Shown: piece after piece, positions 2,538 through 62,013 of the stretch
Position numbering within the stretch: position 1 is the first letter of the stretch
Layout: each line of letters starts with the position of its first letter
Source: a virus
Strand: one strand, 5' to 3'
IMG/VR virus record: IMGVR_UViG_3300048997_000130
Coordinates: 132,677-196,676 of that record
Length of the DNA: 64,000 bases
Translations under genes and position numbers: made by a program
Notes under the pieces: model-generated
What the model was told of the DNA's origin: nothing
Database searches by the model: none
The model's input: only the letters and a program-made list of their open reading frames with translations

Positions 2538-2577
2538 GAAACATCTGATACTCAATATCCGAACAAGAGATTTTCCA

Positions 2578-3030: not shown

Positions 3031-3058
3031 TAATTTGGACTAAGACCGAAGGAAAGGA

Positions 3059-3101
3059 AACAGCAGCCTGAGGGTAAAAAGGGGAACCTCAGGCTGCTGT
3101 T
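3059..3101. terminator. 15-bp inverted repeat hairpin
   Basis: AACAGCAGCCTGAGG...CCTCAGGCTGCTGTT just downstream of the 3030 stop. Confidence 0.6.
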
Positions 3102-3213
3102 AGAGAGGTACTCAATCCGTCGTCTTGTCTATAGTAATAATAACACTTTCCGTTCCTTCCAACAAGTTGCAAATCGGATACCCATCCCTGTAATCCTCCT
3201 AGAGAGATTATAG

Positions 3214-3486
3214 ATGTCCAGTAAGAAAAAAGCCACTGTCCGCGATTTGTTTATTGGTGCTGTCATTCGAATAATTCCAGAAGATGGCAATATTGACGCG
3301 TTCGAAGACGCTATTATTGTCGAACAAACACTATTTGGCTGGCGCTGCGTTCGCCCCTATGTGTTTGTTCTTGGCAATGGACAATTTGAAGTCCGAACCG
3401 AAATCTACATATTGAGCGAAAATACTGTCCAGAAGAGATTAGTGGAAGTAATTTCGCCAAATCAAGATATCGGATTTGCTACCTAG
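3214..3486 (+). CDS. hypothetical protein
   Basis: 90-aa ORF. Confidence 0.65.
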   Translation: MSSKKKATVRDLFIGAVIRIIPEDGNIDAFEDAIIVEQTLFGWRCVRPYVFVLGNGQFEVRTEIYILSENTVQKRLVEVISPNQDIGFAT

Positions 3487-3497
3487 GGGGTAAATAA

Positions 3498-4019
3498 ATG
3501 AAACACTTTCGTAATGTTATGATGAAATCCGATCCCAATCTATCTACTATCATGAAACTACATACTTCAATGTTCCCGAATGATGAAGAAGTCACAACCA
3601 TTTACGTAGGTTCTGCAGCCTCTGCTGTAGAAGAGAAGACTCGACCGGATATCTATATTAGTATCATGGCAGCCGGTCATATTCATGGATTTGCGGAAGC
3701 TGAACATTATCCGTGGCAAAAACCCAGTACATTCTGGAGTTGCGTGGCCGACGCTCAAGTGCCAGAACTCAATTGTGAACAACGCATACAATATATCAAA
3801 AATTTTTTGGAAGGGGTTGCACATTATTACGAACTCAATAACGTGCCGACTTTGGATGAATATGCGGTTTTGCAACAAATATTGAATAATAAAGATGATG
3901 CAGAAGAGGAAGAACTGGATAGGGTGACAGATTCTCTCATTCAGTCTCTTCCTGCGACGCATGAACACTCTGGCGTATTCGATAGGATTAAAAATATTTT
4001 CCAGAGGTTTGTTGCATAA
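3498..4019 (+). CDS. hypothetical protein
   Basis: 173-aa ORF with a GGGGG SD-like element upstream. Confidence 0.7.
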   Translation: MKHFRNVMMKSDPNLSTIMKLHTSMFPNDEEVTTIYVGSAASAVEEKTRPDIYISIMAAGHIHGFAEAEHYPWQKPSTFWSCVADAQVPELNCEQRIQYIKNFLEGVAHYYELNNVPTLDEYAVLQQILNNKDDAEEEELDRVTDSLIQSLPATHEHSGVFDRIKNIFQRFVA

Positions 4020-4070
4020 ACTGAAAATTCTGTAGCTTAAGATTTTATCTTGTATAATTTTATAAGATAA

Positions 4071-4280
4071 ATGAAAACTTTAGCCCATTTTGCAATTGAT
4101 ATTCAGCGTGATATGTGTTTAGAGCTTTCAGGTAGTCAATTTGAAGCCTTAATCACTATGCTCCAGTCGGATCCCGAAGCTGAAACTAAGAGACTATGGG
4201 AACTTCGACCCAAACAAGTGATGATTGAAATTAATAAACGGATGGAATTCGATAGACAAATATATCAAAATTCGTTCTAG
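4071..4280 (+). CDS. hypothetical protein
   Basis: 69-aa ORF. Confidence 0.55.
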   Translation: MKTLAHFAIDIQRDMCLELSGSQFEALITMLQSDPEAETKRLWELRPKQVMIEINKRMEFDRQIYQNSF

Positions 4281-11676: not shown

Positions 11677-11759
11677 ATCTTTATAACTAATTCATAATAT
11701 ATGATGGAGATAAGAGATTGTAAATGTAAAGTAAAGACAAGTAATAAAGTTACGAATCA

Positions 11760-11786
11760 CGGCCCTTGGTGGAATCGGCAGACACG
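11760..11786 (+). pseudogene. 5' half fragment of a tRNA-Leu-like gene
   Basis: CGGCCCT-TG-GTG-GAATCGGCAGA-CAC-G is an acceptor strand plus a Leu-type D-arm; no matching 3' half seen nearby. Confidence 0.5.
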
Positions 11787-12506
11787 ATAATAACTAATAT
11801 GTATAAGAGCAATAATCATAGATCTAAATATTCATATAATATCGAGATCTTTGAAAAATCTGACCCGATTGCTTATTATATATTAGGAGTTATTGCTACT
11901 GACGGTGCTTTGTTTGAATCATCAAGATACAGGATGTTTAAGATTGATTCTAAGGATAAAGATTGGTTGGAATCAATACGAGACATTATAGTTCCTGGCA
12001 AACCTCTTTACGAATATAAAAATAAAAATCTTTATACACTGTCTATTTATTGTCGTCCAATATTTGATTGGGTTAAATCTAATGGCATGACGCCAAATAA
12101 AACGTTGACTCTAAAGATGCCGAGGATAAACCATTTTTATTACCGAGATTTTTTGAGAGGCGTGATTGATGGTGATGGTTCCGTAAGTCTTTGCAAAATG
12201 AATGGTTACGACAGTGTGTATATGAAAATAATTACTGCCAGCGAAGTATTTGCAAATGAATTGAATTTTATTTTATCAGAATTATTTGAAAAGCCTACCG
12301 CTTTCACAGAAATTAGACATAGTAAATTGGCTAAGCCAAGTTCTCCTACAACTCGTGCATTCCGAGTTCAATATGGTGGTCGTAGAGCAGTCAAATTTCT
12401 AGATGGAATCTATTATGATCATAAATTACTTAAATTAGAAAGGAAATTCCAAAATTATATGAAGATAAAACAAATATTTGTTGATACTGATCGTAGGTAT
12501 GACTGA
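11766..12506 (+). CDS. LAGLIDADG homing endonuclease (two motifs; ATG at 11799 is the likely start)
   Basis: AYYILGVIATDGAL and RDFLRGVIDGDGSV motifs; C-terminal KLERK typical of this family. Confidence 0.85.
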   Translation: MVESADTIITNMYKSNNHRSKYSYNIEIFEKSDPIAYYILGVIATDGALFESSRYRMFKIDSKDKDWLESIRDIIVPGKPLYEYKNKNLYTLSIYCRPIFDWVKSNGMTPNKTLTLKMPRINHFYYRDFLRGVIDGDGSVSLCKMNGYDSVYMKIITASEVFANELNFILSELFEKPTAFTEIRHSKLAKPSSPTTRAFRVQYGGRRAVKFLDGIYYDHKLLKLERKFQNYMKIKQIFVDTDRRYD

Positions 12507-12512
12507 AATAAT

Positions 12513-12598
12513 GCCCTGGTGGTGGAATGGTATACACTCCGCGCTTAAAACGCGGCGCCTTAGCCGGATTGTGGGTTCGAGTCCCACCCAGGGTACCA
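12513..12598 (+). tRNA. trnL: tRNA-Leu(UAA)
   Basis: GCCCTGG/CCAGGGT acceptor, CCGCG-CTTAAAA-CGCGG anticodon arm, long variable arm, GGTTCGAGTCC T-arm, encoded CCA. Confidence 0.93.
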
Positions 12599-12745
12599 TA
12601 GTGGAGTTTAAGATTGCCGAGGGTTCGAGTAATCGGTCAATTTCCTCCATTAGTTTCCTGTTAGATGATTCATTTATAAATTTGTTTAATATCGAGAGCT
12701 CGACATCTTGTAAACGAATGGAATGGATTATCTAGACAGGAACCT

Positions 12746-13015
12746 ATGATATTTTTGAATTTTGGATATTTATTTGATACTGTGACAACGTCAAATAAAT
12801 TATCGATCAATCCAACTGTTCATCAATCAGGACATACTGTCCTTGATGAGCGTAATGCAAATTGGTTTAAGCGACTCCCTGTCCACAAGAAAGTGGACTA
12901 TTTTATCAAAAATGGGATGGGAATTCGAGCTATCGCTAAAGAACTGCATCTGCCTAAGAAGACAGTTCGAGCTATTCTGCATAGTAACGTTCTGAAGGAT
13001 GTCATGCAATCGTGA
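12746..13015 (+). CDS. helix-turn-helix protein with C-terminal tag
   Basis: GMGIRAIAKELHLPKKTVRAIL; ends VLKDVMQS. Confidence 0.7.
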   Translation: MIFLNFGYLFDTVTTSNKLSINPTVHQSGHTVLDERNANWFKRLPVHKKVDYFIKNGMGIRAIAKELHLPKKTVRAILHSNVLKDVMQS

Positions 13016-13135
13016 AGATTTAGTGAATAAGTTTGACGATTTTACGTATGCACATCCCTTGTTATCTTTGCCTATTGTAGTGGTTTTAGCCGTGTCTTTG
13101 CCCATTTATGTTTTCGCTGCTAAGCGAATTCTTAA

Positions 13136-13339
13136 ATGGCAGCGGTCATGAACTGGCAAGAATCTAAATCTTGGTGGTCATTGTCGAACGACGATAAAAA
13201 TCGACTTCGCTCTCGTATTCAAGAACTTCGCCAAGAAGGTTTCATGGTTCGTTCAATCGCTAAATGGCTTGGAATCACTCGTTTAGTTGTTCGAGATTGT
13301 TTGCATGAAATTTTGACATCAGAAATCATGGATTCTTAG
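13136..13339 (+). CDS. helix-turn-helix protein with C-terminal tag
   Basis: GFMVRSIAKWLGITRLVVRDCL; ends TSEIMDS. Confidence 0.7.
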   Translation: MAAVMNWQESKSWWSLSNDDKNRLRSRIQELRQEGFMVRSIAKWLGITRLVVRDCLHEILTSEIMDS

Positions 13340-13674
13340 TTTACAGCCATACTGCGTAGTCCTCGCTTTAGAGATTCGTTGGCTCGCAATATACCATCTT
13401 TGAATTCTTGGACTTGACCCGTACATGCTGCTAAAATAGCAGCACTTATCCATAACGTTGTATCTTGGATAATGTCTTGTGGTAAGTTAATATTAATGGA
13501 CGCGTCATTTATATTATCCAGCGCGTCACAAGCTCTCAACACAGTCCTAGGACCATCCAACTTTTCTAATTGTCTTAAATCATAAGCCACATTTGGCATG
13601 CCTCTTGATTCAAATATTATGGGCAAAAATGTGCGAATAATTATATCAGCTTTTGGGAGTAATATGTTTTTCAA
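13336..13674 (-). CDS. hypothetical protein
   Basis: 112-aa ORF convergent on 13136..13339. Confidence 0.55.
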   Translation of the reverse strand: MKNILLPKADIIIRTFLPIIFESRGMPNVAYDLRQLEKLDGPRTVLRACDALDNINDASININLPQDIIQDTTLWISAAILAACTGQVQEFKDGILRANESLKRGLRSMAVN

Positions 13675-15120: not shown

Positions 15121-15675
15121 ATGTCTCCAAGAACTGGTATTATATTCTTGCTTGAGAATCTTCAAATTGCCTCCGAAATTGGCAGAGTTGCCGAACGTTT
15201 GGCCGGAGCTCGATTGTTACATGCTCAACTGAATATATATGAGCCTCTCATCGATGGTCCTGATAAATCTTTAAGGTTCAGTCATTTTTTCCATATTTCT
15301 GATGGACTAGATAATCAGTTCCTTACTCAATCTTTGTTATTGAGTTTCCCGCAGTTATGTGATGTTGATCTGGTTCGCAATATTAGTGATACCAATCATA
15401 TAAATACTCCCGGGAGTAAATCTGCATATTCCACTCTCATTGACTATGTTGACAATCAATTCCGGACGCAACTTAGAGAAACCAAAGCTCGATTGAATTT
15501 GGAATTCGAGAAGTTCCAAAAAACTGATGCTTATAAACAGCAACGTATTCGGAAAGTCCAAGATTCCGCTCGTCAAGAACTCCAGAAATACTTGATACGA
15601 TATGCGGAGCTCGATGATGAATTTATCCGCAATACGATGGATACATTATTGATCCGAGATACAATGGAGCAATAG
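15121..15675 (+). CDS. hypothetical protein, tandem paralog array B, tag family
   Basis: Ends YAELDDEFIRNTMDTLLIRDTMEQ. Confidence 0.75.
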   Translation: MSPRTGIIFLLENLQIASEIGRVAERLAGARLLHAQLNIYEPLIDGPDKSLRFSHFFHISDGLDNQFLTQSLLLSFPQLCDVDLVRNISDTNHINTPGSKSAYSTLIDYVDNQFRTQLRETKARLNLEFEKFQKTDAYKQQRIRKVQDSARQELQKYLIRYAELDDEFIRNTMDTLLIRDTMEQ

Positions 15676-15677
15676 TC

Positions 15678-16262
15678 ATGGGAACCTTATCTGATTTTGA
15701 ACATTCAACTATCGCTCAAATAGTATTTAAGACTCCGGAATTATCGATATTATTGAAAAAACTTCCGAATATTTTGAAGAAGATTCGCCTACTAGATATT
15801 ACGTTAGATATTTCTAGAGAATTCAATTCTGATAATAATTCATTCTCATGTTCTATTAAGAGACGCCATTTATTATTGATTAATGGGAAAGAAATTATAA
15901 AATATAATATTTCCAATATCGGATTTTCAGATACACAACTGGATGCCGACGTCAGGGCTATTATTAGATCAAATTCTCCAATATTCTATACAGAAATGGA
16001 TTATCAACGAACTATCAATCATTTAGAAAATTTGATTAATTTGGAATTCCAAGAACATCGATTCCGGAGCCAGACGAGGATCTATCGATTAATTAAACAA
16101 TTTGTAAATACTTCACAATTCCAAACGTATCAAACAACAACCATTCGCAATGCAGCCACTCAAGACATATATTCAGTCTTGTCTGCTTATTCGCATTTGG
16201 GAGATGATTTCATAAAATCATCAATCGATACTTTTTTGATTCGCCATACGATGGATATGTGA
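15678..16262 (+). CDS. hypothetical protein, array B, tag family
   Basis: Ends YSHLGDDFIKSSIDTFLIRHTMDM. Confidence 0.75.
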   Translation: MGTLSDFEHSTIAQIVFKTPELSILLKKLPNILKKIRLLDITLDISREFNSDNNSFSCSIKRRHLLLINGKEIIKYNISNIGFSDTQLDADVRAIIRSNSPIFYTEMDYQRTINHLENLINLEFQEHRFRSQTRIYRLIKQFVNTSQFQTYQTTTIRNAATQDIYSVLSAYSHLGDDFIKSSIDTFLIRHTMDM

Positions 16263-42459: not shown

Positions 42460-43137
42460 ATGAATGACTTTCGATTGATTTATAATGTGCCTAGAAAGCC
42501 TGATGTTGTATATTTTACAGATAGATGTCCATATTTTTCGTTGCTTTTAGATAATGGATTGACTGAGATAATGGATTATTATCTAAAAGCATTACTTTTA
42601 GCTAAAATGTATTCCATTCGTCCTAATCGAACAGGAATGCGATTTGATGTTAAATTACGATTTTTTCAACATACTTATAGATGTTCTATTCGACCATATG
42701 AAATATGTTTCCCTAAACAATTAACGACACCATTCAGGACTCCCGAGAGAATATTACAAGAAGTACTTGAATATCTGATTCCACGCAGTCATTTAATTTC
42801 AGATTGTTACAACATACTGAGAAAAGTTAAAATAGATAACGTCCAAGCAAATATCCCTGATAGATCCGGTATGTCTGAATGGATAATTTCTTGGATGTTA
42901 GAACAAAAGGACTTTCATTATGATCAACCACTATTTAATGATCTGATTTCCAATATTATTGAGCAAATTGGACTACAAATTTCTGATTTACAAAATCAGT
43001 ATGATCAGAACATTTATAATGTGACTATTAAATCAATGGAAAAGATAATAACACATGCTTTAAAACATGGAGCTTGTCCGGACAAGCTCCATTCATGTTT
43101 AGATAAATGCATTATTAAATCGGTAATGGATGAATGA
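42460..43137 (+). CDS. hypothetical protein, tag family
   Basis: Ends KCIIKSVMDE. Confidence 0.7.
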   Translation: MNDFRLIYNVPRKPDVVYFTDRCPYFSLLLDNGLTEIMDYYLKALLLAKMYSIRPNRTGMRFDVKLRFFQHTYRCSIRPYEICFPKQLTTPFRTPERILQEVLEYLIPRSHLISDCYNILRKVKIDNVQANIPDRSGMSEWIISWMLEQKDFHYDQPLFNDLISNIIEQIGLQISDLQNQYDQNIYNVTIKSMEKIITHALKHGACPDKLHSCLDKCIIKSVMDE

Positions 43138-48999: not shown

Positions 49000-49671
49000 A
49001 TGCGTTCTCGTGATTTTACTTTGATTTGTCGTGGTCCGCTGGCATGTTTCACGCGCGTCGAATTTCGAACAGACCGGCTTTCATATGAAGCCCCGACTCA
49101 TGCCGCATTAGTCGGAATGTTAGATCAATTTTTATCTAATTCCAAAATGATGTGGTCTGTCCATGAATGTCATATTTTGAAACCGATTCGCTGGATGAAT
49201 TTTTTGCGTAACGAACTCCTGTTCACTCAACTTAATAACGAAGTAGAGATCGGTAATACTATCAAACCAACGCAGCGCAATACTACTTGTTTACATGATG
49301 TCGAGTATAGATTCACAGCCCATTTTGAACTCACAGCCAAAGGCCAAGATAAATATTCTGATAATATTTATGGAGCTGTTCAAAAATATGAAACAATGTT
49401 TTTGAGTCATATGGCTTCAGGACATTTTGTGGGAAGTCTTCCATATTTCGGATTTCGTGAATTTGAAGCTGACGTATTTTTGGATAATGGAGAACATGGA
49501 ACATTCGGAGATGCCATAGATTTAGATTACGACGTTGGACTCATGCATCATAGCGTTGTAAAGACTTCGAAGAAATATAAAAATTATTTCTTCGATGCTA
49601 ATATTCGGAATGGAATTATTAAATATCCATCTCGCGCAGATGTATTAAATAAAAATATCGCTATTGGTTGA
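49000..49671 (+). CDS. cas5: type I-C Cas5 (Cas5c/Cas5d), divergent
   Basis: GPLACFTRVEFRTDRLSYEAPT, HILKPIRWMNFLRNE, LHDVEYRFTAHF, PYFGFREF. Confidence 0.88.
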   Translation: MRSRDFTLICRGPLACFTRVEFRTDRLSYEAPTHAALVGMLDQFLSNSKMMWSVHECHILKPIRWMNFLRNELLFTQLNNEVEIGNTIKPTQRNTTCLHDVEYRFTAHFELTAKGQDKYSDNIYGAVQKYETMFLSHMASGHFVGSLPYFGFREFEADVFLDNGEHGTFGDAIDLDYDVGLMHHSVVKTSKKYKNYFFDANIRNGIIKYPSRADVLNKNIAIG

Positions 49672-50993
49672 AAATTATGACTTTAAATGTTAATTTGCAC
49701 AAAGCCCTGATCAATTTAGCTGAACGTAAAAATTTAAATCCTACCCCATTCCGATCGAAGCATATTCAACTTCGAGTTTATTTCGATAAAAATGGGCAAT
49801 TAGATAAAGTCGTTGCAGACTCCAGTTCTTATTCATTGCCCGTTGAACAAGACAGAACAGCTCAAATTGCTCCTAACTTCGGATATGATTCTCCAAAATA
49901 TGTTGTGAGTACAGACTTAACACAAGCCGCTCCTAAGAGCGCTAAACCACAGTTATTTGAGGCATTTTATTCACAACTCCACCACAGCTTACTTAACTGT
50001 GGTGATCAAGCTCGAGCTTCAATTGTTTCCAAAATCATCAATCTTGGTCCTAAGACATTAAGCCGCCGATTTATTCAGTTACTATCTGGAGTGGATGTTA
50101 ATCCATCCCACATGTCTTGGATTTTGGTTGTCCTTGGAGACGATGCAGATCCGGTTGTCTTATTGAAAGATGTTCGAGATGATTGGGCTCACCAGTTTAA
50201 TAAAACTCTTGGATCTGGAACTCGTGCCACGTGCATGATAACTGGTAAAAAAGATGTTCCATGCAGCCGTGTTATGTCTAAAGCCCGAAAAATCCCTGGA
50301 GCTAATAAAGCTCCGTTGATATCATTCAATCAACCGGTTTTTTGTTATGAAGATAGAGTCCAAGGAGAAAATTTTCCTATCGCACGTGATGTTGATATCT
50401 CGTTAGCCAACGCTTTGACTTGGCTATTTGAACAATCAGAAAATCGACAACATAGGAATGGATTTTCATTTTGCGGATCGGATCCACGGCAACCAGCTGT
50501 TGCTATATGGGGAAGTTCGGATGATGCAGATTCAATTATCGAGAATATTTTAAATTTGGTTCAACTTCCTCGCTTGGGAGTTAAATCTGACGATTATTTG
50601 AAATGTTCTATGGCTTTTTATGATAAATGCTTAGAAGATCTCGAAAAAGCTTCGGATACTCAACATTGGGCTTATATTCTAGGCATCGTTGGTTCAAAAG
50701 GTCGAATTGCTATCACAGCTTGGTATCCGATTGCACTGCGTGATTTGATATCTTCGTTCTTTAAAGCGTTGGATATAATCCCCGACGCGAGACCATTCGG
50801 TCTTTTGAATGCATTACGTAAAATCACTGGAGAACATTTATCCGGTCAAGCTACTTCCCGATTATTGATTGATATACTGTCTGGGAACTCTTGGACATGT
50901 GAATTCCGAGAAGCCGCTTGGGCATACGCTAATATTGCTTATAAAGATATTCATTCGGTATCGAAATCTATTGAAATGGCTGGAAGGATTTAA
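49668..50993 (+). CDS. cas8c: type I-C Cas8c (Csd1), lacking the C-terminal Cas11 region (ATG 49677 likely start)
   Basis: RTAQIAPNFGYDSPKYV; CMITGK...LISFN...QGENFPI...LANALTWL. Confidence 0.8.
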   Translation: MKIMTLNVNLHKALINLAERKNLNPTPFRSKHIQLRVYFDKNGQLDKVVADSSSYSLPVEQDRTAQIAPNFGYDSPKYVVSTDLTQAAPKSAKPQLFEAFYSQLHHSLLNCGDQARASIVSKIINLGPKTLSRRFIQLLSGVDVNPSHMSWILVVLGDDADPVVLLKDVRDDWAHQFNKTLGSGTRATCMITGKKDVPCSRVMSKARKIPGANKAPLISFNQPVFCYEDRVQGENFPIARDVDISLANALTWLFEQSENRQHRNGFSFCGSDPRQPAVAIWGSSDDADSIIENILNLVQLPRLGVKSDDYLKCSMAFYDKCLEDLEKASDTQHWAYILGIVGSKGRIAITAWYPIALRDLISSFFKALDIIPDARPFGLLNALRKITGEHLSGQATSRLLIDILSGNSWTCEFREAAWAYANIAYKDIHSVSKSIEMAGRI

Positions 50994-50995
50994 TA

Positions 50996-51475
50996 ATGTC
51001 TAAGATTAATGTAAATGATGTGGTTGACGTATCTAATTTTTACAAGGCAAATGACGTTCATATCGGATATCATTTGGGCGCATTGATTGCAGTTTTCAAT
51101 CGCCTTCAGTTAATAGGTCTTCGAGGTCGTCGCCCTGGGAACGGATTTAGTTCTAAATTGGGAGTAATTTCCCTCAATCCGTCTCAAATCGTATATCTGG
51201 AAGATCGTGCGGTTACATATTTGGAATCGGCAGACAAAAAACCGGCTTGTCGTCCGTTAGTGTTTTTGGCAAGACAAATTCAGTCTAAAATTCATGAAAT
51301 GGGAATCCCTATTTATTTTCATGATATGGCCAATCAACATGCTGTTTATGCTGGTCATGCAGATATTTGTAAATATTTGAATGCTCGAGCTGAATTTTTC
51401 CAAGACGATAAAGAAGAAATCGAAACTGCGACTGCATCAGACGACGCGGTTTCCAGTGTACCTATGACTAATTGA
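50996..51475 (+). CDS. cas11: free-standing Cas11c-like small subunit
   Basis: GYHLGALIAVFNRLQ resembles the Cas8c C-terminal AYxLGRLFAVLExxQ motif; lies between cas8c and cas7 in a different frame. Confidence 0.65.
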   Translation: MSKINVNDVVDVSNFYKANDVHIGYHLGALIAVFNRLQLIGLRGRRPGNGFSSKLGVISLNPSQIVYLEDRAVTYLESADKKPACRPLVFLARQIQSKIHEMGIPIYFHDMANQHAVYAGHADICKYLNARAEFFQDDKEEIETATASDDAVSSVPMTN

Positions 51476-51520
51476 TTGAATTTATACGAATCTAAATTTA
51501 TACGGAGATAATTATTTATT

Positions 51521-52510
51521 ATGGCAAACGCATTTGATATCTATGATCCAGTTCGAGAAGATTTGATGAAGTTGGCACAAGACCGGACTCCGCTCCAAAA
51601 ACGACGGGATCTGTGTGTTATTGTTGAAGTGCCGGCCGGCGTGATTGCTCAAGGCGATCCAGATATGGATAACATGCCACGCATGGATCCAATCAATCGA
51701 CGTGGTTTTATGACTGATAGTGGTTTGAAGCGTCAGATTCGCGATGCGGCAGTGTTACATATGTATGACATTCCTGGTTATGATGTATTTGTAACGCGTC
51801 GAGCTGTTCAAAATTTGAAAACTGAAGCATTATGCTCTACGCTTGGCATTACAGCACCAAGTGGTGAAGAAGAAGTTGAAGAAGATGACGACTCCAAAGA
51901 CGTTGTTAAGAGTGAGAAGAAACCGGGCAAGAAACCGAGCAAAAAAGCCCGATTCAATGGTGATAACATTGAATTGCTACATAAAGGTTTGTGTGAGAAA
52001 TACTTTGATGTGAGAGCATTCGGACAAGTAACTGGTACTGAGCCTATCCGTGCTCCATTTGTAGTCACCATGGGCTGGAGCGTATCCCCGATTGTGCGCA
52101 ACATCATCAGTATCACCAACGTCTCGGTCCGAACCGAACGCGAAGCTGATAAACAAAATAATCAGAATCGTACGATGGGCAAGCGTCCATATAATGGATA
52201 TGGATTATACGTATTCCATGTCATGGCTGATGTTTATCAAGCACGCCGTTGTGGATTCAGTGAAGGTGATTTTGCTGTCACAGTTGAATTGCTGCGTCGA
52301 GCTTGGCAAGAACGAACTTCAACATCCAAGCTTGGAATGAATGTGCGTCAAATTGCATGTTTTGAGCACGAAGGTGCTGGACGAGCTCTGCCAGCTGCAA
52401 TTTATCGATTAGTAAAAATCCAGTCCAATACGGAAAATCCGATGTGTTGGGAGGATTATACTATTGATGTTGATGCTCCGCCCAACGGCGTACAATTTAG
52501 TTGGCTGTAA
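51521..52510 (+). CDS. cas7: type I-C Cas7 (Csd2)
   Basis: QGDPDMDNMPRMDP, GFMTDSGLKRQIRD, YFDVRAFGQV, NRTMGKR...YGLY. Confidence 0.92.
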   Translation: MANAFDIYDPVREDLMKLAQDRTPLQKRRDLCVIVEVPAGVIAQGDPDMDNMPRMDPINRRGFMTDSGLKRQIRDAAVLHMYDIPGYDVFVTRRAVQNLKTEALCSTLGITAPSGEEEVEEDDDSKDVVKSEKKPGKKPSKKARFNGDNIELLHKGLCEKYFDVRAFGQVTGTEPIRAPFVVTMGWSVSPIVRNIISITNVSVRTEREADKQNNQNRTMGKRPYNGYGLYVFHVMADVYQARRCGFSEGDFAVTVELLRRAWQERTSTSKLGMNVRQIACFEHEGAGRALPAAIYRLVKIQSNTENPMCWEDYTIDVDAPPNGVQFSWL

Positions 52511-52522
52511 ATTACTAGACTA

Positions 52523-54724
52523 ATGCAACCGCATGCTTATCAACAGCGTGATTTGGATGACTTGCTTGAAGCTGCCAAATCACATCGTAGACTAGCTGTT
52601 GTTCACGCAACAGGGGCTGGTAAGACATTAGTATCAACCCTGTTCGTGCAGAACACACTTGGAAGTTTGTTCACGCATGTGATTAGTGCTACTCCAATGG
52701 ACAGCATCCGAGTTGGATTTGAGCGTGCTATGTATGATATTGGAGCACGAACAGGTTCATCATGGAACGAACTTGTGCATTATTTGCAAGCCGATTCTCT
52801 AGCAAATGTGAGTTATATATGTTGTCACGCATCTATTAATAGACAAGATTCTATATATCAACTACGCCAGTTATTGGACTCCCGTCCCGATTTTTTAAAT
52901 GGCAAACTACTGATTGTTGACGAAGCCCAACACGCTGGTGCTGATGGTTTGTCGGAGTTCGTCGAGCTTTGGTATCAAGGTGGCGGTCATATCCTATATT
53001 TAACCGCCACCCCATATCGAAGTGATGGCCGAACAGTGATTCCTGAAGGAACATTCACTGTATATCGGACAATGTGTCAACAAATGCGGAATGGTTTTGC
53101 TCCTCGAATACTTTGTAGCGAAATCATTGACGTGGGTGGAAAGTTTGTTGAATGTGCTGGCGTAGTTGGTGCTCCGGAAGCCATTGCGAAAACCGCAGAT
53201 GCAATGGTGAGCACTTGGGATAAAGACAAACGCCCATTCTTGATCATTCGAGTCAAGAATCATTCGGATAGTGGATATAACAAACGCGTAATCAACACGC
53301 TTGTCCAGAAATTTTCGGATAGCGGAGCACGTGTTCTGAATGCCACAGATCATCAAACTGAATCGTGTGTGGTTGAACTCCGGAATTTATTGCAGAAAAC
53401 TTCCGAAGGGATTCCGACTCACGACGTAATTATCGGGATCCAAAGAGTGGCTGAAGGACTGGACTGGCCAATTTGTTCCCACATTTATTTATGGGGAGTT
53501 CCCAAGTCATTGCCCATGCTCGTTCAAATTCTTGGACGAGCGATGCGAAGGAAATCTGGGATTGTGGCCGAACAGTGGCGTGATTGTTCCAAATTAGTAT
53601 TATTCACTGCCGGGGTAAATGCGTTAGCACATAGTCGATATATATTACTCACTGCTTATTTACTTTCGGATTTTGCATCCAGCCGTCATATGTCAGCATT
53701 CGAAGAATTGCACGGGCTCATTGATGGACTCCCTGTCCCTGTGCGCCGAGCCGCTAGTGCTGGGCTCTCTTATATCCATGTGCCTGAAGATCTCAGGCAA
53801 GCTATTCGTATTCGAATTGACGCTATATTCAATCGGTTTCGAGACGATCCCGCACGTATTTCTCCGAGACAATTATTGGAAGTGTTGATCCCAGAATTCC
53901 CGGAGCTTTCCAAGAAAGCCGTCCAGCAATTAGTATTGGAGACTTATATGTCTTCAAATCCCAAGGCATTGAATTTGTTCCGAGAACAGCTGCAAGACCG
54001 ATTGTTGTCTGGGAATGATATATCTAAAACTCTGAATGACGCTGTGGAATCAGTACTCATGGAATTTCGTGAGGAAACTATTATTGTTCCACAAAGCCTC
54101 ATAACGTGCCAGATGCATGGGCTTTCTGGAGAATCCATTCAACTGCATTCAGACAAATTACGGCTATATTTATCACCATTATCCGAACAAGATATGTTGC
54201 GTGGTTTTGATCATTTCTTCAGGACTTACAAGCGTTTCCCAAATTTAGGAGATGTGAATCCTATAAACCCATTATATACGTTCGAAACTTATGACAGAGC
54301 GCTTCGTGACGGTGATCGCAGTCTTAAGCAAGTAGACGGCGGATTCCGGCAAGTTGTGCATGAAAGATTCTGGAAGACGCATTCGGTTGGTTCGAATGCT
54401 ACTTGGGCTGAATTATGTGATGATATTCTAGAAAGACTTAAAGATGTTCCGGATCCTAGAAAGATCATGCAACATATTCAAAATACTGGTTGCCCGACGT
54501 TCCATTATTATGGTGCGATTTACAAAGCTTCAGAATTTTTAGAAGTCGCAGATTTATTGAAATTCGGACCGGACGTTGCAGAGTGTATGCTTAAATTAAG
54601 TAAAGTACGATTAAATAAATGTTTGGAAGAACTTATTCAGGCGGAAAGTCCTGAAGATGCTCTTCAAGTCTTATATGCACAGTTCCCTAATAAGACACGT
54701 CCAGACCAACGTCTGGCTTCTTAA
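52523..54724 (+). CDS. SF2 (DEAH-type) helicase without HD nuclease, with a long C-terminal extension
   Basis: PHAYQ, HATGAGKT, IVDEAQH, LTATP, VAEGLDWP, QILGRAMR; the Q-motif is at the extreme N-terminus, so there is no room for a Cas3 HD domain. Confidence 0.85.
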   Translation: MQPHAYQQRDLDDLLEAAKSHRRLAVVHATGAGKTLVSTLFVQNTLGSLFTHVISATPMDSIRVGFERAMYDIGARTGSSWNELVHYLQADSLANVSYICCHASINRQDSIYQLRQLLDSRPDFLNGKLLIVDEAQHAGADGLSEFVELWYQGGGHILYLTATPYRSDGRTVIPEGTFTVYRTMCQQMRNGFAPRILCSEIIDVGGKFVECAGVVGAPEAIAKTADAMVSTWDKDKRPFLIIRVKNHSDSGYNKRVINTLVQKFSDSGARVLNATDHQTESCVVELRNLLQKTSEGIPTHDVIIGIQRVAEGLDWPICSHIYLWGVPKSLPMLVQILGRAMRRKSGIVAEQWRDCSKLVLFTAGVNALAHSRYILLTAYLLSDFASSRHMSAFEELHGLIDGLPVPVRRAASAGLSYIHVPEDLRQAIRIRIDAIFNRFRDDPARISPRQLLEVLIPEFPELSKKAVQQLVLETYMSSNPKALNLFREQLQDRLLSGNDISKTLNDAVESVLMEFREETIIVPQSLITCQMHGLSGESIQLHSDKLRLYLSPLSEQDMLRGFDHFFRTYKRFPNLGDVNPINPLYTFETYDRALRDGDRSLKQVDGGFRQVVHERFWKTHSVGSNATWAELCDDILERLKDVPDPRKIMQHIQNTGCPTFHYYGAIYKASEFLEVADLLKFGPDVAECMLKLSKVRLNKCLEELIQAESPEDALQVLYAQFPNKTRPDQRLAS

Positions 54725-55353
54725 TGTCTCATATTAAACATAACTTTGTTGGAGAAGAAAAGCGCTCCTGGAGGATGCGCAATTTAGAATTTTTACTGCG
54801 TCATCAATCTGATTTATTACTCGAAAATAAGCTTCGAGGTTCCTATATGGAGCTTATTGGAATGAGTGGTAGTGAATTCTATGCATTATTGACGCCATAT
54901 TTACAAAAGCCAACAGATTTTATAGCTGTGGATAGATGTTGTCGAGTTATCCTTGATCATAGGGAAGACATGTCAGCATTTAAGACTATTTTTTCAACCA
55001 GTATTATTGCTGTTGCGCAACGAGAAATACCTATAATACTCAATTATGATGGATATGGGTCAGCCAACAGTCCAAGCTTTTGGAAAAAAGAAAGCTTTGG
55101 AATACAAGATGTAATCCATAAAGGTATCAAAAAATATGGGTGTTTTGCATTTATTTTAAATAAAGTGCTTGGCAAAGCAGATAACGAAACTACACACAAG
55201 ACGTTGTTGGGTTTCAAACAAAAAATCCTCGAACTTGGTCATGGATTTCGCATGTTAGATGCTTTTGAACCAAGTTCTGATTGTATGATTCTAGATATAT
55301 ATCGGGGTAATGGCCCTAGGATGATTACTTTTCGTACATTATTTGTTCGATAA
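54724..55353 (+). CDS. hypothetical protein, possible class I SAM-methyltransferase-like fold
   Basis: TAATG-coupled to the helicase; SYMELIGMSG (beta1/motif I-like), FIAVDR (acidic end of beta2), ILNYDGYG (beta4), terminal YxGxGPRM. Confidence 0.4.
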   Translation: MSHIKHNFVGEEKRSWRMRNLEFLLRHQSDLLLENKLRGSYMELIGMSGSEFYALLTPYLQKPTDFIAVDRCCRVILDHREDMSAFKTIFSTSIIAVAQREIPIILNYDGYGSANSPSFWKKESFGIQDVIHKGIKKYGCFAFILNKVLGKADNETTHKTLLGFKQKILELGHGFRMLDAFEPSSDCMILDIYRGNGPRMITFRTLFVR

Positions 55354-55702
55354 TCATCCCTTGTTTTTTGACAAATTATGCGTTGATGCGATTATCGGAA
55401 AATCGTTGATCAACGAATATCTTTAATCAGCTCCCATAAGCCGTAGGTCAGAATTATAATTCTACTTGCGAAGATTAACTAAGTTATTTCTTGAGCTTTC
55501 AGGGACGTTGCAAAGATATTTATGATTTTTTGTGGTGGTTTAACCACCACTTGATTAAATTATTTGGTGCGAGTGATCCAATAATTATTAATTATGCTGG
55601 ATGCTCGATCCCAATCAAGAATATACTGAATTTTAATATTCATGTAATTTCTCGCAGGAAATTTTCGAAGAAAATTTCCGACAATTATTGTTGAATATCT
55701 TT
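55354..55702 (+). promoter_or_regulatory. CRISPR leader-like AT-rich region with a candidate sigma70 promoter and two palindromes
   Basis: TTGACA 55368 with TGcGATTAT 16 nt later; GTGGTGGTT-T-AACCACCAC 55532..55550; GGAAATTTTC-GAA-GAAAATTTCC 55657..55679. Confidence 0.45.
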
Positions 55703-56176
55703 GTAACAATGGATTATTATCCATTGTGGTTATTGAAATTTTCCAGTGCACGTAACAAGTCGTGAGTGGCCCGAGAAGTAACAATGGATTATTATCCATT
55801 GTGGTTATTGAAATCCAAAGGCACCGGTTCGCTCCCGTTGGGCATAGAGGTAACAATGGATTATTATCCATTGTTGGTTATTGAAATTCAATCCTGATGA
55901 TCGGTTCCCGTGGGAAGATGAGTAACAATGGATTATTATCCATTATAGTTATTGAAATTCAGCTTGCTCAACCGCCCATTCGAAAGCCACCTTGGTAACA
56001 ATGGATTATTATTCATTATAATTATTGAAATCGACCATCGCGTCCCACAGCAAGGTCTTCGAGACGGTAACAATGGATTATTATCTATTATAATTATTGG
56101 AATCGACGATGGAACAACGTGTACCGGGATTTACGCAAAGTAACAATGGATAATGATCCATTATAATTATTGAAAG
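55703..56176 (+). CRISPR. CRISPR array, intact part: 7 repeats of 37-38 nt, 6 spacers of 34-38 nt
   Basis: Repeat GTAACAATGGATTATTATCCATTGTGGTTATTGAAAT at 55703, 55778, 55850, 55922, 55995, 56067, 56140; stem ACAATGGAT/ATCCATTGT; ATTGAAAT 3' end. Confidence 0.97.
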
Positions 56177-58621
56177 GTGGTGTCCTGGGTAACAATGTTT
56201 GTTAATGATAGTAATAATGGATAATGATTGAAATTACCTGCCAGCGAACCAGCGAACTCGGGAATCCTGATAATACCTGATAATAATGGATAATAATTGA
56301 AAGTAAAGAGCTCTGACGAGGGACGTCGTGCAGTAACCATAATTATTTGAAATTATGTGATCGGCAGCCAGACTAATCACGAGGATCAAAGTAACAATAG
56401 ATAATGATTGGAAGAGCTTAAGCTCGCGGGCAGCAACGGTTGGACTCGTGTAATAATGATTGAAAGCCTTCTACGCGCCGGCTTCAAAAATATAATGGAT
56501 CATGATCCATTATTACGATTGGGAAGGCGCTGCATCTGCACCAACAATTCCTGATTATTATGATTGGAAGGACTCGACGACGAGAATCGCAAGCTTTTGG
56601 CTGCAAGTTATGGTTGGAAGAGCTTCGCGAAATGCTGAATGTTGGACGACTATTTTTTGGAGATAACAATAGATCATTATCTATCATAATTAATTGGAAT
56701 CTCAAGGTGCAAAAATAGCCAACTAATGATCACTAGATAATGAATGAATGAAAGAAAGAACGGACGAAATTGCAGTAGACTGAGTCATATGGGACAGATA
56801 AATAGTGGACTATTCACAATGATTGGAATCAAAACGGACAGCCTTCCCGGCAGAGAACCGGATTGCGAATGGTAAGTTAATAGTAGATTATGATTGAAAG
56901 ACCTGAAAAGCGATATGGCCCTGTCAATGATTGAAATTAGGCCTTAATCGCATCTATTATATAAATATTGAAATGGCTTACGCTTTCGGATTGATAATGA
57001 TTGGAATATGTAGTCCTTACCTCTATGTTTGGTGTTAATGATCAATAATTATTGGAATTAACTGCGGAAAAAGAAGACAATATATGAATAATTGGAATCT
57101 GCCGACACATAAGCGATTTCCTGGATAATATATTTATTGAGATAAGGTTCGTTCTGCGCGGTGTGTTATCTTCAATAATATGATTTAATGATTGGGAAAC
57201 AGTGATTCACACCCGGAAAATCAGATAATCTCATTATTAATGAATATGACTAATGTGTATCATCTTGGACCTCAAGTTTAATAAATAATTATGTTGGAAA
57301 AGGCCTATCCAATCGTTTCCCCAAGATAAAATAGATTGGAATATGAGGCGAGATAGCACTCATAATAATGTTTGGAAAGCTGGGGATATGCGATACATAT
57401 AGGATATAGCGCCGCATAGATTATTACTGATTGGAACGGGTAGCCAAGCTTCCATCCCTTAGATTCTCAAGATATTTAGAATCTTGAATCAATATATACG
57501 TTCCGGATTTTGATATTAACTGGAATAATTTTATAAAATTGATTGATATATCATATATTGAAATAAAAGCGGGCTGTTCTCCCTGACATTTATTATTGCA
57601 ATATGATTGCGATCCCTCCAGGCTTGGCTAGAACTGATTGTAATTCTAGTGTTCAATTGGTGGAGTGGTAAACGCGTTTATAATTTATTAGCATTCAATG
57701 ATTGGAATGTGTAAGTAACAGTATATATGATATCGTGCAAGCATTGGAACCAGCGGAAGATTTCGATTCTGATTCAGAGCTGATTGGAAAGATGTCGCCA
57801 TATCATTGGAATAGTAATCAAACGGACTGCGTTGAGGTCAATTGATTGGAATCTGGCCCATTAGCATTAGTTGAATCAACATGATTGGAATAGACGAGAA
57901 AAGTATGCAGATACTGAATTGTCCATATCGGAATCATGCTTAGGAGTCGCTGTCATTATCTATTGAAACTTGCCTATGGATGCCCAAACCATTTGAAATA
58001 GATTGAAATACAATTGCATGATCTGGGATTATTTGATTATGTCCAAATTTGAAATCCATGTATTGGAAAACTTTTGCCACTCGTCTGCATGACTGGAGCG
58101 TTTTCAAAATTTAATCATATTTATTGGAAAACAGCGGATAGGTCTGTTGATCATTATTGGAATCCGCCAATGGACTGGCAATGTCCGGTTCTTGAATCCA
58201 GTTATTGGAATTAGAACAGTATGGCTCCGTTCAGTGCAGAATTTGGGACTCCAATATCTAATTATTGAAACCACCTCTAGATGATGGAGTCAGTGGATGA
58301 TTATTTGTATTGAAATGGGATTACATCATGCATAATATCAAAGTCCCATTATGAATTGGAATTGGTCGAGGAACTGCACCATTAGCAATCAATTGGAAAG
58401 GGTATGGCTCGATATATATTGATTGGAATAGACCCGAAAACTCGGCTGATGGTGCCTATTTCATTATTGGAATAGAAACGGTGTCACACTAAATTGGAAT
58501 TCGAACGACGGTTGTCTTGTTCCGGATTCAAATATATAAGGTTGCACATTAATTGAGATATGTATACGACCACCCGATACTAGGCTCGAATGTTCAACTG
58601 ATCGGAATAATCGATTGGAAT
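56177..58621 (+). CRISPR. degenerate, handle-only continuation of the array (about 50 units by hand count)
   Basis: Truncated repeats (24, 24, 21, 24, 17 nt), then recurrent ATGATTGGAAT/ATTATTGAAAT motifs mostly every 30-60 nt, usually followed by GC-richer unique sequence; no ORFs beyond short shadows. Confidence 0.75.
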
Positions 58622-61244: not shown

Positions 61245-61326
61245 GTGGATGCTGGGCATTGGCGAGCCCAACGGTTTGTAATCCCGCCGCTTTTTAGCTG
61301 TGTAGGTTCGAATCCTGCCATCCACA
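61245..61326 (+). tRNA. trnY: tRNA-Tyr(GUA), weak anticodon stem
   Basis: GTGGATG/CATCCAC acceptor, GGGC..GCCC D-stem, TT-GTA-AT loop, long variable arm, GGTTCGAATCC. Confidence 0.7.
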
Positions 61327-61375
61327 CTAAACGGAAGCGGAAGCGCAAATGAAAAAGCATAAAATCGGGATATAA

Positions 61376-61400
61376 GGATCTGTAGCACAATGGCAACGTA
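61376..61400 (+). pseudogene. 5' part of a split tRNA-Lys-like gene
   Basis: GGATCTG-TA-GCACAATGGCA; its acceptor strand pairs with CGGATCC at 61585..61591. Confidence 0.55.
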
Positions 61401-61403
61401 AAT

Positions 61404-61475
61404 GGGCTTGAAATGTAATGGTTGCATACCGGCCTTTTAAGCCGTGAAGAGCGGGATCAATACCCGTCAAGCCCA
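61404..61475 (+). tRNA. trnK: tRNA-Lys(UUU)
   Basis: GGGCTTG/CAAGCCC acceptor, CCGGC-CTTTTAA-GCCGT anticodon arm, T-loop GATCAAT. Confidence 0.82.
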
Positions 61476-61550
61476 CGACTAGTATTTAATTGACTAACTA
61501 AACTATGATATCAAACGAATGAAAGATAGATTCTTGAATCAAATATCTAA

Positions 61551-61592
61551 TTTTTAACCGGAAGGTTGTGAGTTCAAGTCTCACCGGATCCA
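61551..61592 (+). pseudogene. 3' part of a split tRNA-Lys(UUU)-like gene
   Basis: TTTTTAA-CCGGA-AGGTT-GTGAG-TTCAAGT-CTCAC-CGGATCC-A. Confidence 0.65.
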
Positions 61593-61597
61593 CTCTC

Positions 61598-61670
61598 GAG
61601 TCTGTAGCTCAATGGGTAGAGCCACTAATTCTTAATTAGTAGGTTGGAGGTTCAATTCCTCTCAGATTCA
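61598..61670 (+). tRNA. trnK: tRNA-Lys(CUU)
   Basis: GAGTCTG/CAGATTC acceptor, GCTC..GAGC D-stem, ACTAA-TTCTTAA-TTAGT anticodon arm. Confidence 0.9.
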
Positions 61671-61723
61671 CTTCTTCAAACACAAGTAGGATCGGTTGTC
61701 ATAGAAACAATATTCAACAATAT

Positions 61724-61794
61724 TCGGGACTCGTCTAAAGGCAGGACATCTCCCTTTGAAGGAGAACATCGTGGTTCGAATCCACGGTCCCGAA
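61724..61794 (+). tRNA. trnQ: tRNA-Gln(UUG)
   Basis: TCGGGAC/GTCCCGA acceptor, TCTCC-CTTTGAA-GGAGA anticodon arm, CGTGG-TTCGAAT-CCACG. Confidence 0.92.
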
Positions 61795-61892
61795 CTGATT
61801 CAAGCCGCGTTGTGGCCTTGATCTATGACATCATAAAACGGCGTGACGACGGAATCCAAATAATCGGAGTCTGTGTCAGTCTCCCGTGGAAT

Positions 61893-61968
61893 GGGGATGT
61901 GGAGGAGAGGTTGTCCTCGCCTGTTTGTCAAACAGGAGATTTCGCGGGTTCGAATCCCGTCATCCCCG
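61893..61968 (+). tRNA. trnD: tRNA-Asp(GUC)
   Basis: GGGGATG/CATCCCC acceptor, CCTGT-TTGTCAA-ACAGG anticodon arm, GCGGG-TTCGAAT-CCCGT. Confidence 0.92.
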
Positions 61969-62013
61969 CTCAATATCTATAATGATAAATGATTGGAATT
62001 TAACGCGGAAGCC

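Follow-up and report, generated by a model that had tools for sequence, protein, structure and literature searches.

What does a type I-C CRISPR locus do when it is carried by a huge phage and another helicase stands where Cas3 is expected? The canonical type I-C order is cas3-cas5c-cas8c-cas7c-cas4-cas1-cas2. Class 1 effectors have repeatedly exchanged Cas3, for the transposition proteins of CASTs, for DinG in type IV systems and through HNH insertions, and each of these exchanges has opened up new biology and led to new tools. The window analyzed here, a stretch of 64,000 nucleotides from a phage contig, carries on its + strand cas5c, a split cas8c (an N-terminal part and a 159-aa Cas11-like ORF), cas7c, an ORF for a 733-aa SF2 helicase and a 209-aa ORF, with a leader and CRISPR array 3' of this six-ORF operon. 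All six ORFs are intact and co-oriented, with junctions of -4, +2, +45, +12 and -1 nt, the last of which, between the helicase and the 209-aa ORF, reads TAATG. This is the gene order that a preliminary description of the locus had given, and both the ORFs and their families (Pfam, PADLOC and TIGR profiles) agree with it. PHROG matches and six tRNAs also lie within the window. Coordinates below are positions in the window, on the + strand unless stated otherwise.

The first gene, cas5c (49000..49671, 223 aa), matches Pfam Cas_Cas5d (5e-12), PADLOC Cas5c (2e-31) and TIGR01876 (9e-23), and its best solved relative is the I-C Cas5 of N. lactamica (8g9s, E = 5e-20). Its product is the predicted pre-crRNA-binding and processing subunit where Cas6 is missing. 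The catalytic triad of S. mutans Cas5c is Y/K/H (PMC8524198); the corresponding positions here are L45/K129/Y130, with the invariant lysine retained. The second gene (49668..50993, 441 aa) matches Cas_Csd1 (5e-29) and PADLOC Cas8c (1.5e-34); of the 559 positions in the Cas_Csd1 profile it covers only 7-356, the N-terminal two thirds. The 159-aa ORF that follows (50996..51475) had no family match in the profile libraries. It had been read as a Cas11-like small subunit, equivalent to the C-terminal domain of Cas8c, and two comparisons bear this out: blastp aligns its 155-aa counterpart in the related locus L009 with the C-terminus (residues 477-615) of the full-length L006/L007 Cas8c (2e-9), and an HMM of these C-termini matches the 159-aa ORF itself (E = 3e-7, 18 bits). 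Relatives carry Cas8c either full-length (579-618 aa) or split into parts of 434-445 aa and 155-171 aa. Finally, cas7c (51521..52510, 329 aa) matches Pfam Cas_Cas7 (6.6e-46), TIGR02589 Cas7/Csd2 (4e-46) and PADLOC Cas7c (1e-46). The I-C-type Cascade gene set is complete, with Cas5c, a Cas8c split in two, and Cas7c.

Cas1, Cas2, Cas3_HD and Cas6 had no profile match in the 196,676-bp contig, which represents about 44% of the phage genome (CheckV), a completeness that implies a genome of roughly 450 kb. The lack of Cas3 and adaptation genes, first noticed in the window, thus holds for 197 kb of sequence. The single Cas4-profile match in the contig, 128 kb from the operon, was rejected as a Cas4: it is a generic PD-(D/E)XK (PDDEXK_1) nuclease beside an Mre11-like phosphoesterase, in a neighborhood that looks recombination-related. 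A scan of 14 flanking ORFs gave no match to a transposase or other mobile-element family, in agreement with the earlier remark that transposase genes are absent. If further spacers are still acquired, adaptation genes must act in trans. On somewhat better than even odds, we take the locus to be an interference-only CRISPR module of a Cas3-less I-C type.

Cas3's place is occupied by an SF2 helicase/translocase of 733 aa (52523..54724; ResIII, 1.9e-9). Its ATPase motifs are invariant across 21 homologues: T30/G31/G33/K34 of Walker A, D133-E134-x-x-H137, T161-A162-T163, and Q335/G338/R339/R342. An AF2 model of the helicase core matches the Type ISP enzyme LlaBIII (the top Foldseek match), XPB, RadD and HsdR, and Cas3 is absent among its best 50 structure matches. 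A profile search of PDB sequences agreed, with Brr2, HsdR and XPB among the matches listed and no Cas3 among all 60 of them; XPD-type chains matched at E values of 0.16-0.18 only, and no DinG structure appeared among the matches listed. Pfam, NCBIfam and PADLOC profiles detected no HD or other nuclease domain on the helicase. Its C-terminal 350 residues were poorly modeled and could conceal a catalytic domain. The protein had no close match in the GenBank phage collection.

The start of the last ORF (54724..55353, 209 aa) overlaps the helicase stop. Its product had no sequence match in Pfam, NCBIfam, PADLOC or the PDB, and we found 41 distant homologues. With an alignment of homologues as input, AF2 gave a model with a pLDDT of 90.7 and a pTM of 0.87. 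The best 50 Foldseek matches to this model are all methyltransferases (E about 4e-6 to 3e-5), as are the best 50 VIA-align matches (Z 10.9-12.8, 153-187 residues aligned), and an ESM Atlas model gives the same fold. The methyltransferase fold suspected in the preliminary description is therefore upheld by modeling, and we are confident in predicting that the protein has a class I (seven-stranded Rossmann-like), SAM-methyltransferase fold. Within the family K13, D109 and N146 are invariant, and D70, the acidic residue that ends beta-2, is D or E in 36 of 36 sequences. Motif I is divergent (E43-L-x-G46-x-S/T-G), motif IV, where beta-4 ends, reads N-x-D instead of (D/N)PPY, and there is no TRD.

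If helicase and small ORF belong to the CRISPR system, they should be linked to cas genes elsewhere, and in further large phage-like contigs they are. The core of cas5, cas8, cas7, helicase and small ORF recurs in five other divergent loci (L003, L006/L007, L009, L010 and a 17.7-kb JGI contig), in the same order and at only about 25-33% identity. Cas1, Cas2, Cas3-HD and Cas6 are not annotated in the flanks of these five relatives (up to 10 kb on each side, as the contig allows), and none of the six loci has a nuclease gene linked to the module. The helicase stop overlaps the start of the small ORF in the window. Of the seven related loci for which there is sequence or there are gene calls, six show the same overlap (L004, L006/L007, L009, L010/L011, L012 and the JGI contig), and in L003 the two ORFs are 23 nt apart. 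A helicase tree places the Cascade-linked helicases together with that of L004 on one side of a branch with 100/99 support. The helicase/methyltransferase-fold pair is also found without Cascade, in L012 and in the bacterial loci L001 and L002, which argues that the two proteins act together in their own right. The methyltransferase-fold protein is a conserved and obligate partner of the helicase. In L012 the pair adjoins a gene for an N6_N4 DNA methyltransferase.

Downstream of the operon is a non-coding, AT-rich leader (55354..55702) with a promoter-like site at 55368-55395 (TTGACA-16 nt-(TG)GATTAT, 10 of 12 matches). The intact array (55703..56176) has seven repeats of 37 nt and six spacers of 34-38 nt. 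The repeat is I-C-like, ending in ATTGAAAT, and its RNA is predicted to fold into 3 nt, a 9-bp stem with a 4-nt loop, and a 12-nt 3' tail (-11.1 kcal/mol, z = -3.2). Beyond it, a degenerate tail (56177..58621) of about 42 units has kept only the 12-nt 3' end of the repeat (AATnATTGGAAT). From 55703 to about 58621 the motif TTGRAA occurs 49 times on the + strand and once on the - strand, and its density is 16.5 per kb in the array region versus 2.0 per kb in the rest of the window. In the tail, information content is limited to positions -5 to +6 relative to TTGRAA, and what used to be the stem carries none. The median unit spacing is 46 nt in the tail versus 72-73 nt in the intact array, and GC content between motifs drops from 0.54 to about 0.43-0.45 along the array. 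No + strand ORF of at least 60 aa lies wholly inside the tail; one 73-aa ORF was found on the - strand (56484-56705).

One spacer identifies a target. Spacer 3 (55888..55921) has a perfect protospacer in another huge phage, IMGVR_UViG_3300048997_000225 (L013, 5202-5235; 34/34 identity). The protospacer falls within codons 5-16 in an ORF of 94 aa, reads along the coding strand and has no repeats beside it; its 5' flank is ...TAA. Because the spacer is identical to the coding strand, its crRNA can pair with the DNA and not with that mRNA. Judged by this orientation, the predicted target of spacer 3 is DNA, and the proposal that competitor DNA might be the target is supported by this match. Spacer 7 matches the same phage at 26 of 34 positions.

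We consider nuclease-free, RNA-guided interference against rival phages the best reading of the locus, with a probability of roughly 55%. The leader would drive transcription of the array, Cas5c would bind the 12-nt handle, and Cascade would assemble and form an R-loop on the DNA of a rival phage. The R-loop complex would recruit the helicase, as it does Cas3 or CasDinG in other systems, and the helicase would translocate away from the target with its methyltransferase-fold partner, blocking the rival's transcription or replication while the system itself makes no cut. The partner may methylate nucleic acid along the way or may be a regulatory subunit. In the literature the published huge-phage variant is likewise taken as probably non-nucleolytic. 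Several points count against this reading: a Cas3, nuclease partner or adaptation module could sit in the other 56% or so of the genome, the mostly decayed array could mean a declining system, motifs I and IV of the 209-aa protein depart as described above, and only one of the six intact spacers has a perfect match.

RNA-guided methylation could be the purpose of the system, with Cascade placing the translocase-methyltransferase pair so that rival DNA is methylated around the target and is thereby silenced or exposed to methyl-directed (type IV) restriction by the host. The class I fold, the conserved acidic residues resembling a SAM site and the three invariant polar residues speak for it, as do the N6_N4 methyltransferase gene beside the pair in L012 and the overlap of the ORF's start with the stop of a translocase that by fold is best matched to a Type ISP enzyme, in which translocase and methylase are combined. 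However, the nearest structures to the model are small-molecule, protein and rRNA/tRNA methyltransferases, with no stand-out and M.HhaI only at Foldseek rank 44, and the protein lacks a (D/N)PPY motif, a target-recognition domain and any sequence-level match to a solved methyltransferase; we regard this account as unlikely. A bolder version, also doubtful, holds that the Cascade-recruited translocase-methyltransferase pair writes methyl or other chemical marks at crRNA-specified sites and that the handle-only tail yields working guides without the hairpin. Such guides could work because Cas5c recognizes the cut site and the 5' handle.

Alternatively, the helicase may replace only the motor of Cas3, with the target destroyed by a nuclease in trans (a Cas3 or another enzyme of the host, for instance RecBCD, or a nuclease that the phage encodes elsewhere). 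Unwinding at an R-loop would make substrates for host nucleases, more than half of the genome lies outside the contig, and the contig does encode the PD-(D/E)XK nuclease next to the Mre11-like phosphoesterase. That gene is 128 kb away in an apparent recombination context, though, none of the six loci links a nuclease gene to the module, and the partner that is conserved has a methyltransferase fold rather than a nuclease one, so we think this quite improbable. Finally, the locus could be a relic, with adaptation lost and its genes on the way out. Hairpins have been lost over about 2.4 kb of the array, the GC content of spacers is drifting to the genome value, and adaptation genes were not found in the 197-kb contig. 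Yet none of the six ORFs is broken, their catalytic motifs are conserved, seven intact leader-proximal repeats remain, spacer 3 matches a contemporary phage perfectly, and the relative L006 has about 55 repeats. Moreover, retention of the module at 25-33% identity in several lineages implies long purifying selection. Decay is in our judgment very improbable.

The preliminary description knew of no account of this architecture, but one exists: a type I-C variant with a non-Cas3 helicase was briefly described in huge phages (Al-Shayeb et al. 2020, Nature 578:425, Extended Data Fig. 9; PMC7162821). By its description, that variant shares with ours a huge-phage host, I-C Cas5, Cas8 and Cas7, a Cas5d-like Cas5 without Cas6 and with partly altered active-site residues, the absence of Cas1 and Cas2, and a helicase other than Cas3 where Cas3 would be expected. 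The published phages also carry a CasPhi system. In the text and legends of that paper there is no mention of a methyltransferase, a split cas8c/cas11, the pair outside CRISPR loci or a handle-only tail (PMC7162821), and we found no experimental study of the architecture in the literature searched. These features may be new: the conserved methyltransferase-fold partner, an origin of the pair that lies outside CRISPR, a target for the system, and a 2.4-kb array tail in which the 12-nt handle is all that is left of the repeat. Our analysis defines a compact six-gene module and makes the variant testable: it names candidate active-site residues for the helicase's partner and supplies a natural target in a rival huge phage, with flanking sequence usable for PAM tests. 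Existing outside CRISPR, the pair may be an independent module for defense or DNA transactions. Should the partner be an active enzyme, the locus would be a natural coupling of RNA-guided targeting to methylation, and if it does write methyl marks, a natural programmable "epigenetic" effector in phage-against-phage warfare.

The locus shares its Cas5c, Cas8c and Cas7c families with canonical I-C systems. As in those systems, the Cas8c C-terminus is the source of the Cas11 function, and the repeat forms a hairpin followed by a single-stranded 3' tail that ends in ATTGAAAT. The locus differs in that the phage contig (about 44% of the genome) has neither a Cas3 HD-helicase nor a cas4-cas1-cas2 module, Cas11 has a gene of its own, the predicted handle length is 12 nt versus 11 nt, and the 5' flank of the sole protospacer is ...TAA versus TTC. 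Type IV-A with CasDinG is likely a functional analogy, as non-nucleolytic interference: both are adaptation-less Class 1 effectors borne by mobile genetic elements, with a helicase rather than a nuclease, and both would serve in conflicts between mobile elements. Unlike type IV-A, the phage cas genes match I-C profiles only and not Csf1, Csf2 or Csf3, the helicase is nearest to XPB, RadD, HsdR and Type ISP enzymes (with weak XPD matches and no DinG among the matches listed), and the module has an additional methyltransferase-fold subunit. The pair itself resembles Type I and Type ISP restriction-modification enzymes (HsdR-HsdM; LlaBIII/LlaGI) in joining an SF2 dsDNA-translocase fold to a methyltransferase-fold component, but of the two proteins only the translocase is similar to these enzymes in fold. 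The pair lacks their NPPY/DPPY motif and TRD/HsdS, neither an Mrr nor a PD-(D/E)XK nuclease domain was found on it, and target recognition would instead come from Cascade and its crRNA.

ORF calling and profile searches bore out the anatomy given in the preliminary description: six closely packed ORFs in the same orientation on the + strand, followed by a leader and an array. The first encodes Cas5c (49000-49671; PADLOC, 2e-31; TIGR01876, 9e-23), the second the first two thirds only of Cas8c/Csd1 (49668-50993; profile positions 7-356 of 559) and the third a 159-aa protein that matched no family (50996-51475); these are followed by Cas7c (51521-52510; 7e-46), an SF2 helicase (52523-54724; ResIII, 2e-9) and a 209-aa ORF that likewise matched no family (54724-55353). 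The non-coding leader 3' of the 209-aa ORF contains a promoter-like element, TTGACA-16-TG-GATTAT (55368-55395), and the array starts after it at 55703, both on the + strand. The window is the final 64 kb of a 196,676-bp IMG/VR record with completeness rated at 44%, and contains PHROG matches and six tRNAs. Four of these (Tyr, Lys, Gln, Asp) are clustered at 61245-61969, 2.6 kb downstream of the array, while tRNA-Ile and tRNA-Leu lie at other places. As had been stated earlier, no transposase-like families were found in searches of the flanks.

Among related loci, Cas8c is either full-length (579-618 aa) or an N-terminal part of 434-445 aa followed by an ORF of 155-171 aa. The 155-aa ORF of one such relative (L009) aligns with residues 477-615 of the full-length Cas8c of another (L006/L007; 2e-9), and an HMM built from those Cas8c C-termini matches the window's 159-aa ORF (E = 3e-7, 18 bits). 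From this alignment and this match, the 159-aa ORF is a predicted Cas11-equivalent encoded as its own gene; for the same ORF, a word-based homology search returned nothing and the ESM Atlas nothing informative. The nearest relative of the Cas5 is the N. lactamica I-C Cas5 (8g9s, 5e-20). At the positions of the S. mutans Cas5c triad, Y50/K120/H121 (PMC8524198), the window's protein has L45/K129/Y130, retaining the invariant Lys; the residues at the two other positions are stated to occur in active Cas5c proteins (PMC8524198).

The 209-aa protein has no match in sequence libraries, and a word-based homology search found nothing; exhaustive phmmer was needed to recover its relatives, 41 distant proteins. 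Modelled by AF2 with the alignment of these relatives (pLDDT 90.7, pTM 0.87), it has class I SAM-dependent methyltransferases as all of the best 50 Foldseek and all of the best 50 VIA-align matches (Z 10.9-12.8), and the ESM Atlas model agrees. These models establish the predicted class I methyltransferase fold that had been suspected from the sequence.

The order cas5-cas8-cas7-helicase-small ORF, the last being the counterpart of the 209-aa gene, was found in five further loci: L003, L006/L007 (on a 437-kb contig), L009, L010 (on a 109-kb contig) and a 17.7-kb JGI contig. The proposed linkage of cas genes, helicase and small ORF thus recurs in loci that are divergent, with pairwise identities to the window's proteins of only about 25-33%. 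IMG/VR single-protein scans gave no direct relative of the helicase or of Cas7c, and GenBank phages gave remote matches only. Among the seven related loci for which sequence or gene calls were available, the helicase stop overlaps the small-ORF start in six (L004, L006/L007, L009, L010/L011, L012 and the JGI contig), as it does in the window; the exception is L003, in which 23 nt separate the two. When helicase cores were placed in a maximum-likelihood tree, a branch with 100/99 support separated the five Cascade-linked helicases and that of L004 from 22 others, which is compatible with a single capture, bearing in mind that the branches are long and make long-branch artefacts possible. The preliminary description had taken the architecture to be undescribed; however, Extended Data Fig. 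9 of Al-Shayeb et al. notes an 'unidentified helicase' together with a Cas5 that is Cas5d-like and has altered residues in its active site (PMC7162821). That paper makes no mention of a methyltransferase, the available portions of the FLSHclust survey and of a 2024 review do not describe the module, and we found no experimental characterisation of it in the literature.

Helicase and small ORF also occur in loci that lack Cascade. One example is a stretch of L012 (7570-12003) without cas genes, in which the gene for an 818-aa helicase homologue overlaps that for a small-ORF homologue, with a 149-aa ORF and the gene of an N6_N4 DNA methyltransferase following; an IS605 OrfB/TnpB-family (Cas12f1-like_TNB) gene lies immediately upstream of this unit. 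In two bacterial loci, 8-9 kb of toxin-antitoxin genes (PIN, HTH, DUF433/DUF5615, PemK) lie between the helicase homologue and a 237-aa member of the small-ORF family (L001:10001-20881; L002:10001-21701), so that the pair may bound a variable island. Neighbour families (PSCyt1/PSCyt2/PSD1, DUF1501) suggest that these contigs come from Planctomycetes, and in L002 the small gene is present a second time, in broken form, at 15204-15938. Since it is present without Cascade in these loci, the pair looks like an older two-gene unit taken up by a I-C Cascade. In L006/L007 and L010/L011, the methyltransferase-fold gene is followed by a gene of 69-71 aa (L006:10746-10955, L010:10726-10941; 45% identity between the two). 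The window lacks this gene, and its small ORF is directly followed by the leader; a 67-aa ORF in the leader was considered as its counterpart and rejected as unrelated.

Spacer 3 matches, with 34/34 identity, IMGVR_UViG_3300048997_000225, a 132.5-kb viral contig (CheckV, 30% complete); competitor DNA had been proposed as a target, and this perfect match to another huge phage agrees. The protospacer has no flanking repeats and lies in codons 5-16 of a 94-aa ORF, adjoined by sigma-factor and clamp-loader genes, in a 10.5-kb locus of 37.6% GC. The spacer has the sequence of the coding strand, so that base-pairing of the crRNA would be possible with the template strand of the DNA and not with the mRNA. 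Spacer 7 matches the same contig at 26/34 (BLAST E 0.002 for that genome), which may represent an aged or escaped protospacer. No kinship between the target-phage fragment and the window's phage was detectable, and comparison of the spacers and tail units with the contig of the window's phage gave nothing above chance. Searched as exact patterns with every sixth base free, spacers 1, 2, 4, 5 and 6 had no match in IMG/VR; the same held for spacers 2 and 4 in JGI metagenomes and for spacers 5 and 6 in GTDB genomes.

The array has seven 37-nt repeats, with a predicted fold of 3 nt, a 9-bp stem with a 4-nt loop, and a 12-nt tail. In the stretch between 56177 and about 58621, hairpins have largely gone and a 12-nt motif, AATnATTGGAAT, persists in about 42 copies, all on the + strand at a median spacing of 46 nt; its sequence is exactly that of the single-stranded repeat tail, the part expected to form the 5' handle of the crRNA. 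A few distal units retain hairpins with changed stems. Units were picked by their TTGRAA core, so conservation of the core is biased, while the six flanking positions, which are free of this bias, are also conserved. Handle retention may reflect selection, or the mode of hairpin deletion. For recognition by Cas5c, the stem-loop matters less than the cut site and the 5' handle (PMC8524198), and hairpin-less units could for this reason still be bound. Over the array, spacer GC drops from 0.54 to about 0.43-0.45 (genome value 0.40), which looks like ageing. The + strand of the tail is purine-rich at 56001-58000 (GC skew 0.17, the strongest in the window; AT skew 0.06). The contig has no second array. 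At 42566-42583, inside a 225-aa ORF, 14 nt agree exactly with a portion of the repeat hairpin; this stretch was rejected as a repeat copy and, lacking both second arm and handle, is probably not repeat-derived. In L006, two large arrays (2173-4137 and 11692-13650; about 55 repeats in total) flank the same operon, and their repeats are heterogeneous, with compensating changes in a variable stem and loop and a constant 3' end, GGGAGTTCCAAC.

Given the observed gene content, folds, conserved linkage and DNA target, we put at roughly 0.55 the probability that the locus provides nuclease-free RNA-guided interference against rival phages. A Cascade R-loop would form on the rival's DNA and the helicase would be recruited there, with the methyltransferase-fold protein acting beside it; this recruitment, translocation and the outcome are what we infer. 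The Q motif, Walker A (T30/G31/G33/K34), DEAxH (D133/E134/H137), TAT (161-163) and motif VI (Q335/G338/R339/R342) are kept in 21 helicase homologues, consistent with an active ATPase. A nuclease provided in trans seems unlikely to us. Cas1, Cas2, Cas3_HD and Cas6 profiles had no match in the 196,676-bp contig, so that the reported lack of cas1, cas2 and an HD nuclease holds for the window and for the whole contig, itself 44% complete; nor are Cas1, Cas2, Cas3 or Cas4 families annotated in the flanks of the Cascade-linked relatives, up to 10 kb per side where the contig allows. A weak Cas4-profile match outside the window, a 288-aa protein (G000:C1:53803-54156, L022:1417-2283; PDDEXK_1, 76 bits), was rejected as a CRISPR Cas4: it is a generic PD-(D/E)XK nuclease adjoining an Mre11-like gene, and with this calcineurin-like/Mre11-type phosphoesterase probably forms a recombination module separate from the CRISPR system. 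No nuclease family was detected on the helicase. Its AF2 model, confident for the core (residues 1-380) and poor in the C-terminal half, most resembles Type ISP LlaBIII, XPB, RadD and HsdR in a fold search, and the matches listed by a PDB-sequence profile search include Brr2, HsdR, XPB, MDA5, RadD and UvrB; with Cas3 absent among the matches listed in both, a diverged Cas3' was rejected as far as these searches go.

Targeted methylation as the real effector chemistry is a doubtful proposition in our view, and any methyl transfer would be conjectural. The 209-aa family keeps K13, D109 and N146 invariant and has D or E at the end of beta-2 in 36/36 sequences; its motif I is divergent (E-L-x-G-x-S/T-G), and its structural matches span small-molecule, protein N-terminal, rRNA/tRNA and Hen1-type enzymes with no substrate class prominent. 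The predicted complex of helicase and small protein scored 0.15 against a mark of 0.32, which speaks neither for nor against an interaction. We regard a decaying relic as very improbable: the hairpin-poor tail would fit such decay, and beside it stand the conserved operon and the perfect spacer match. The predicted repeat fold has the I-C layout. The 5' flank of the spacer-3 protospacer, ...AATAATAA, differs from the TTC of canonical I-C.
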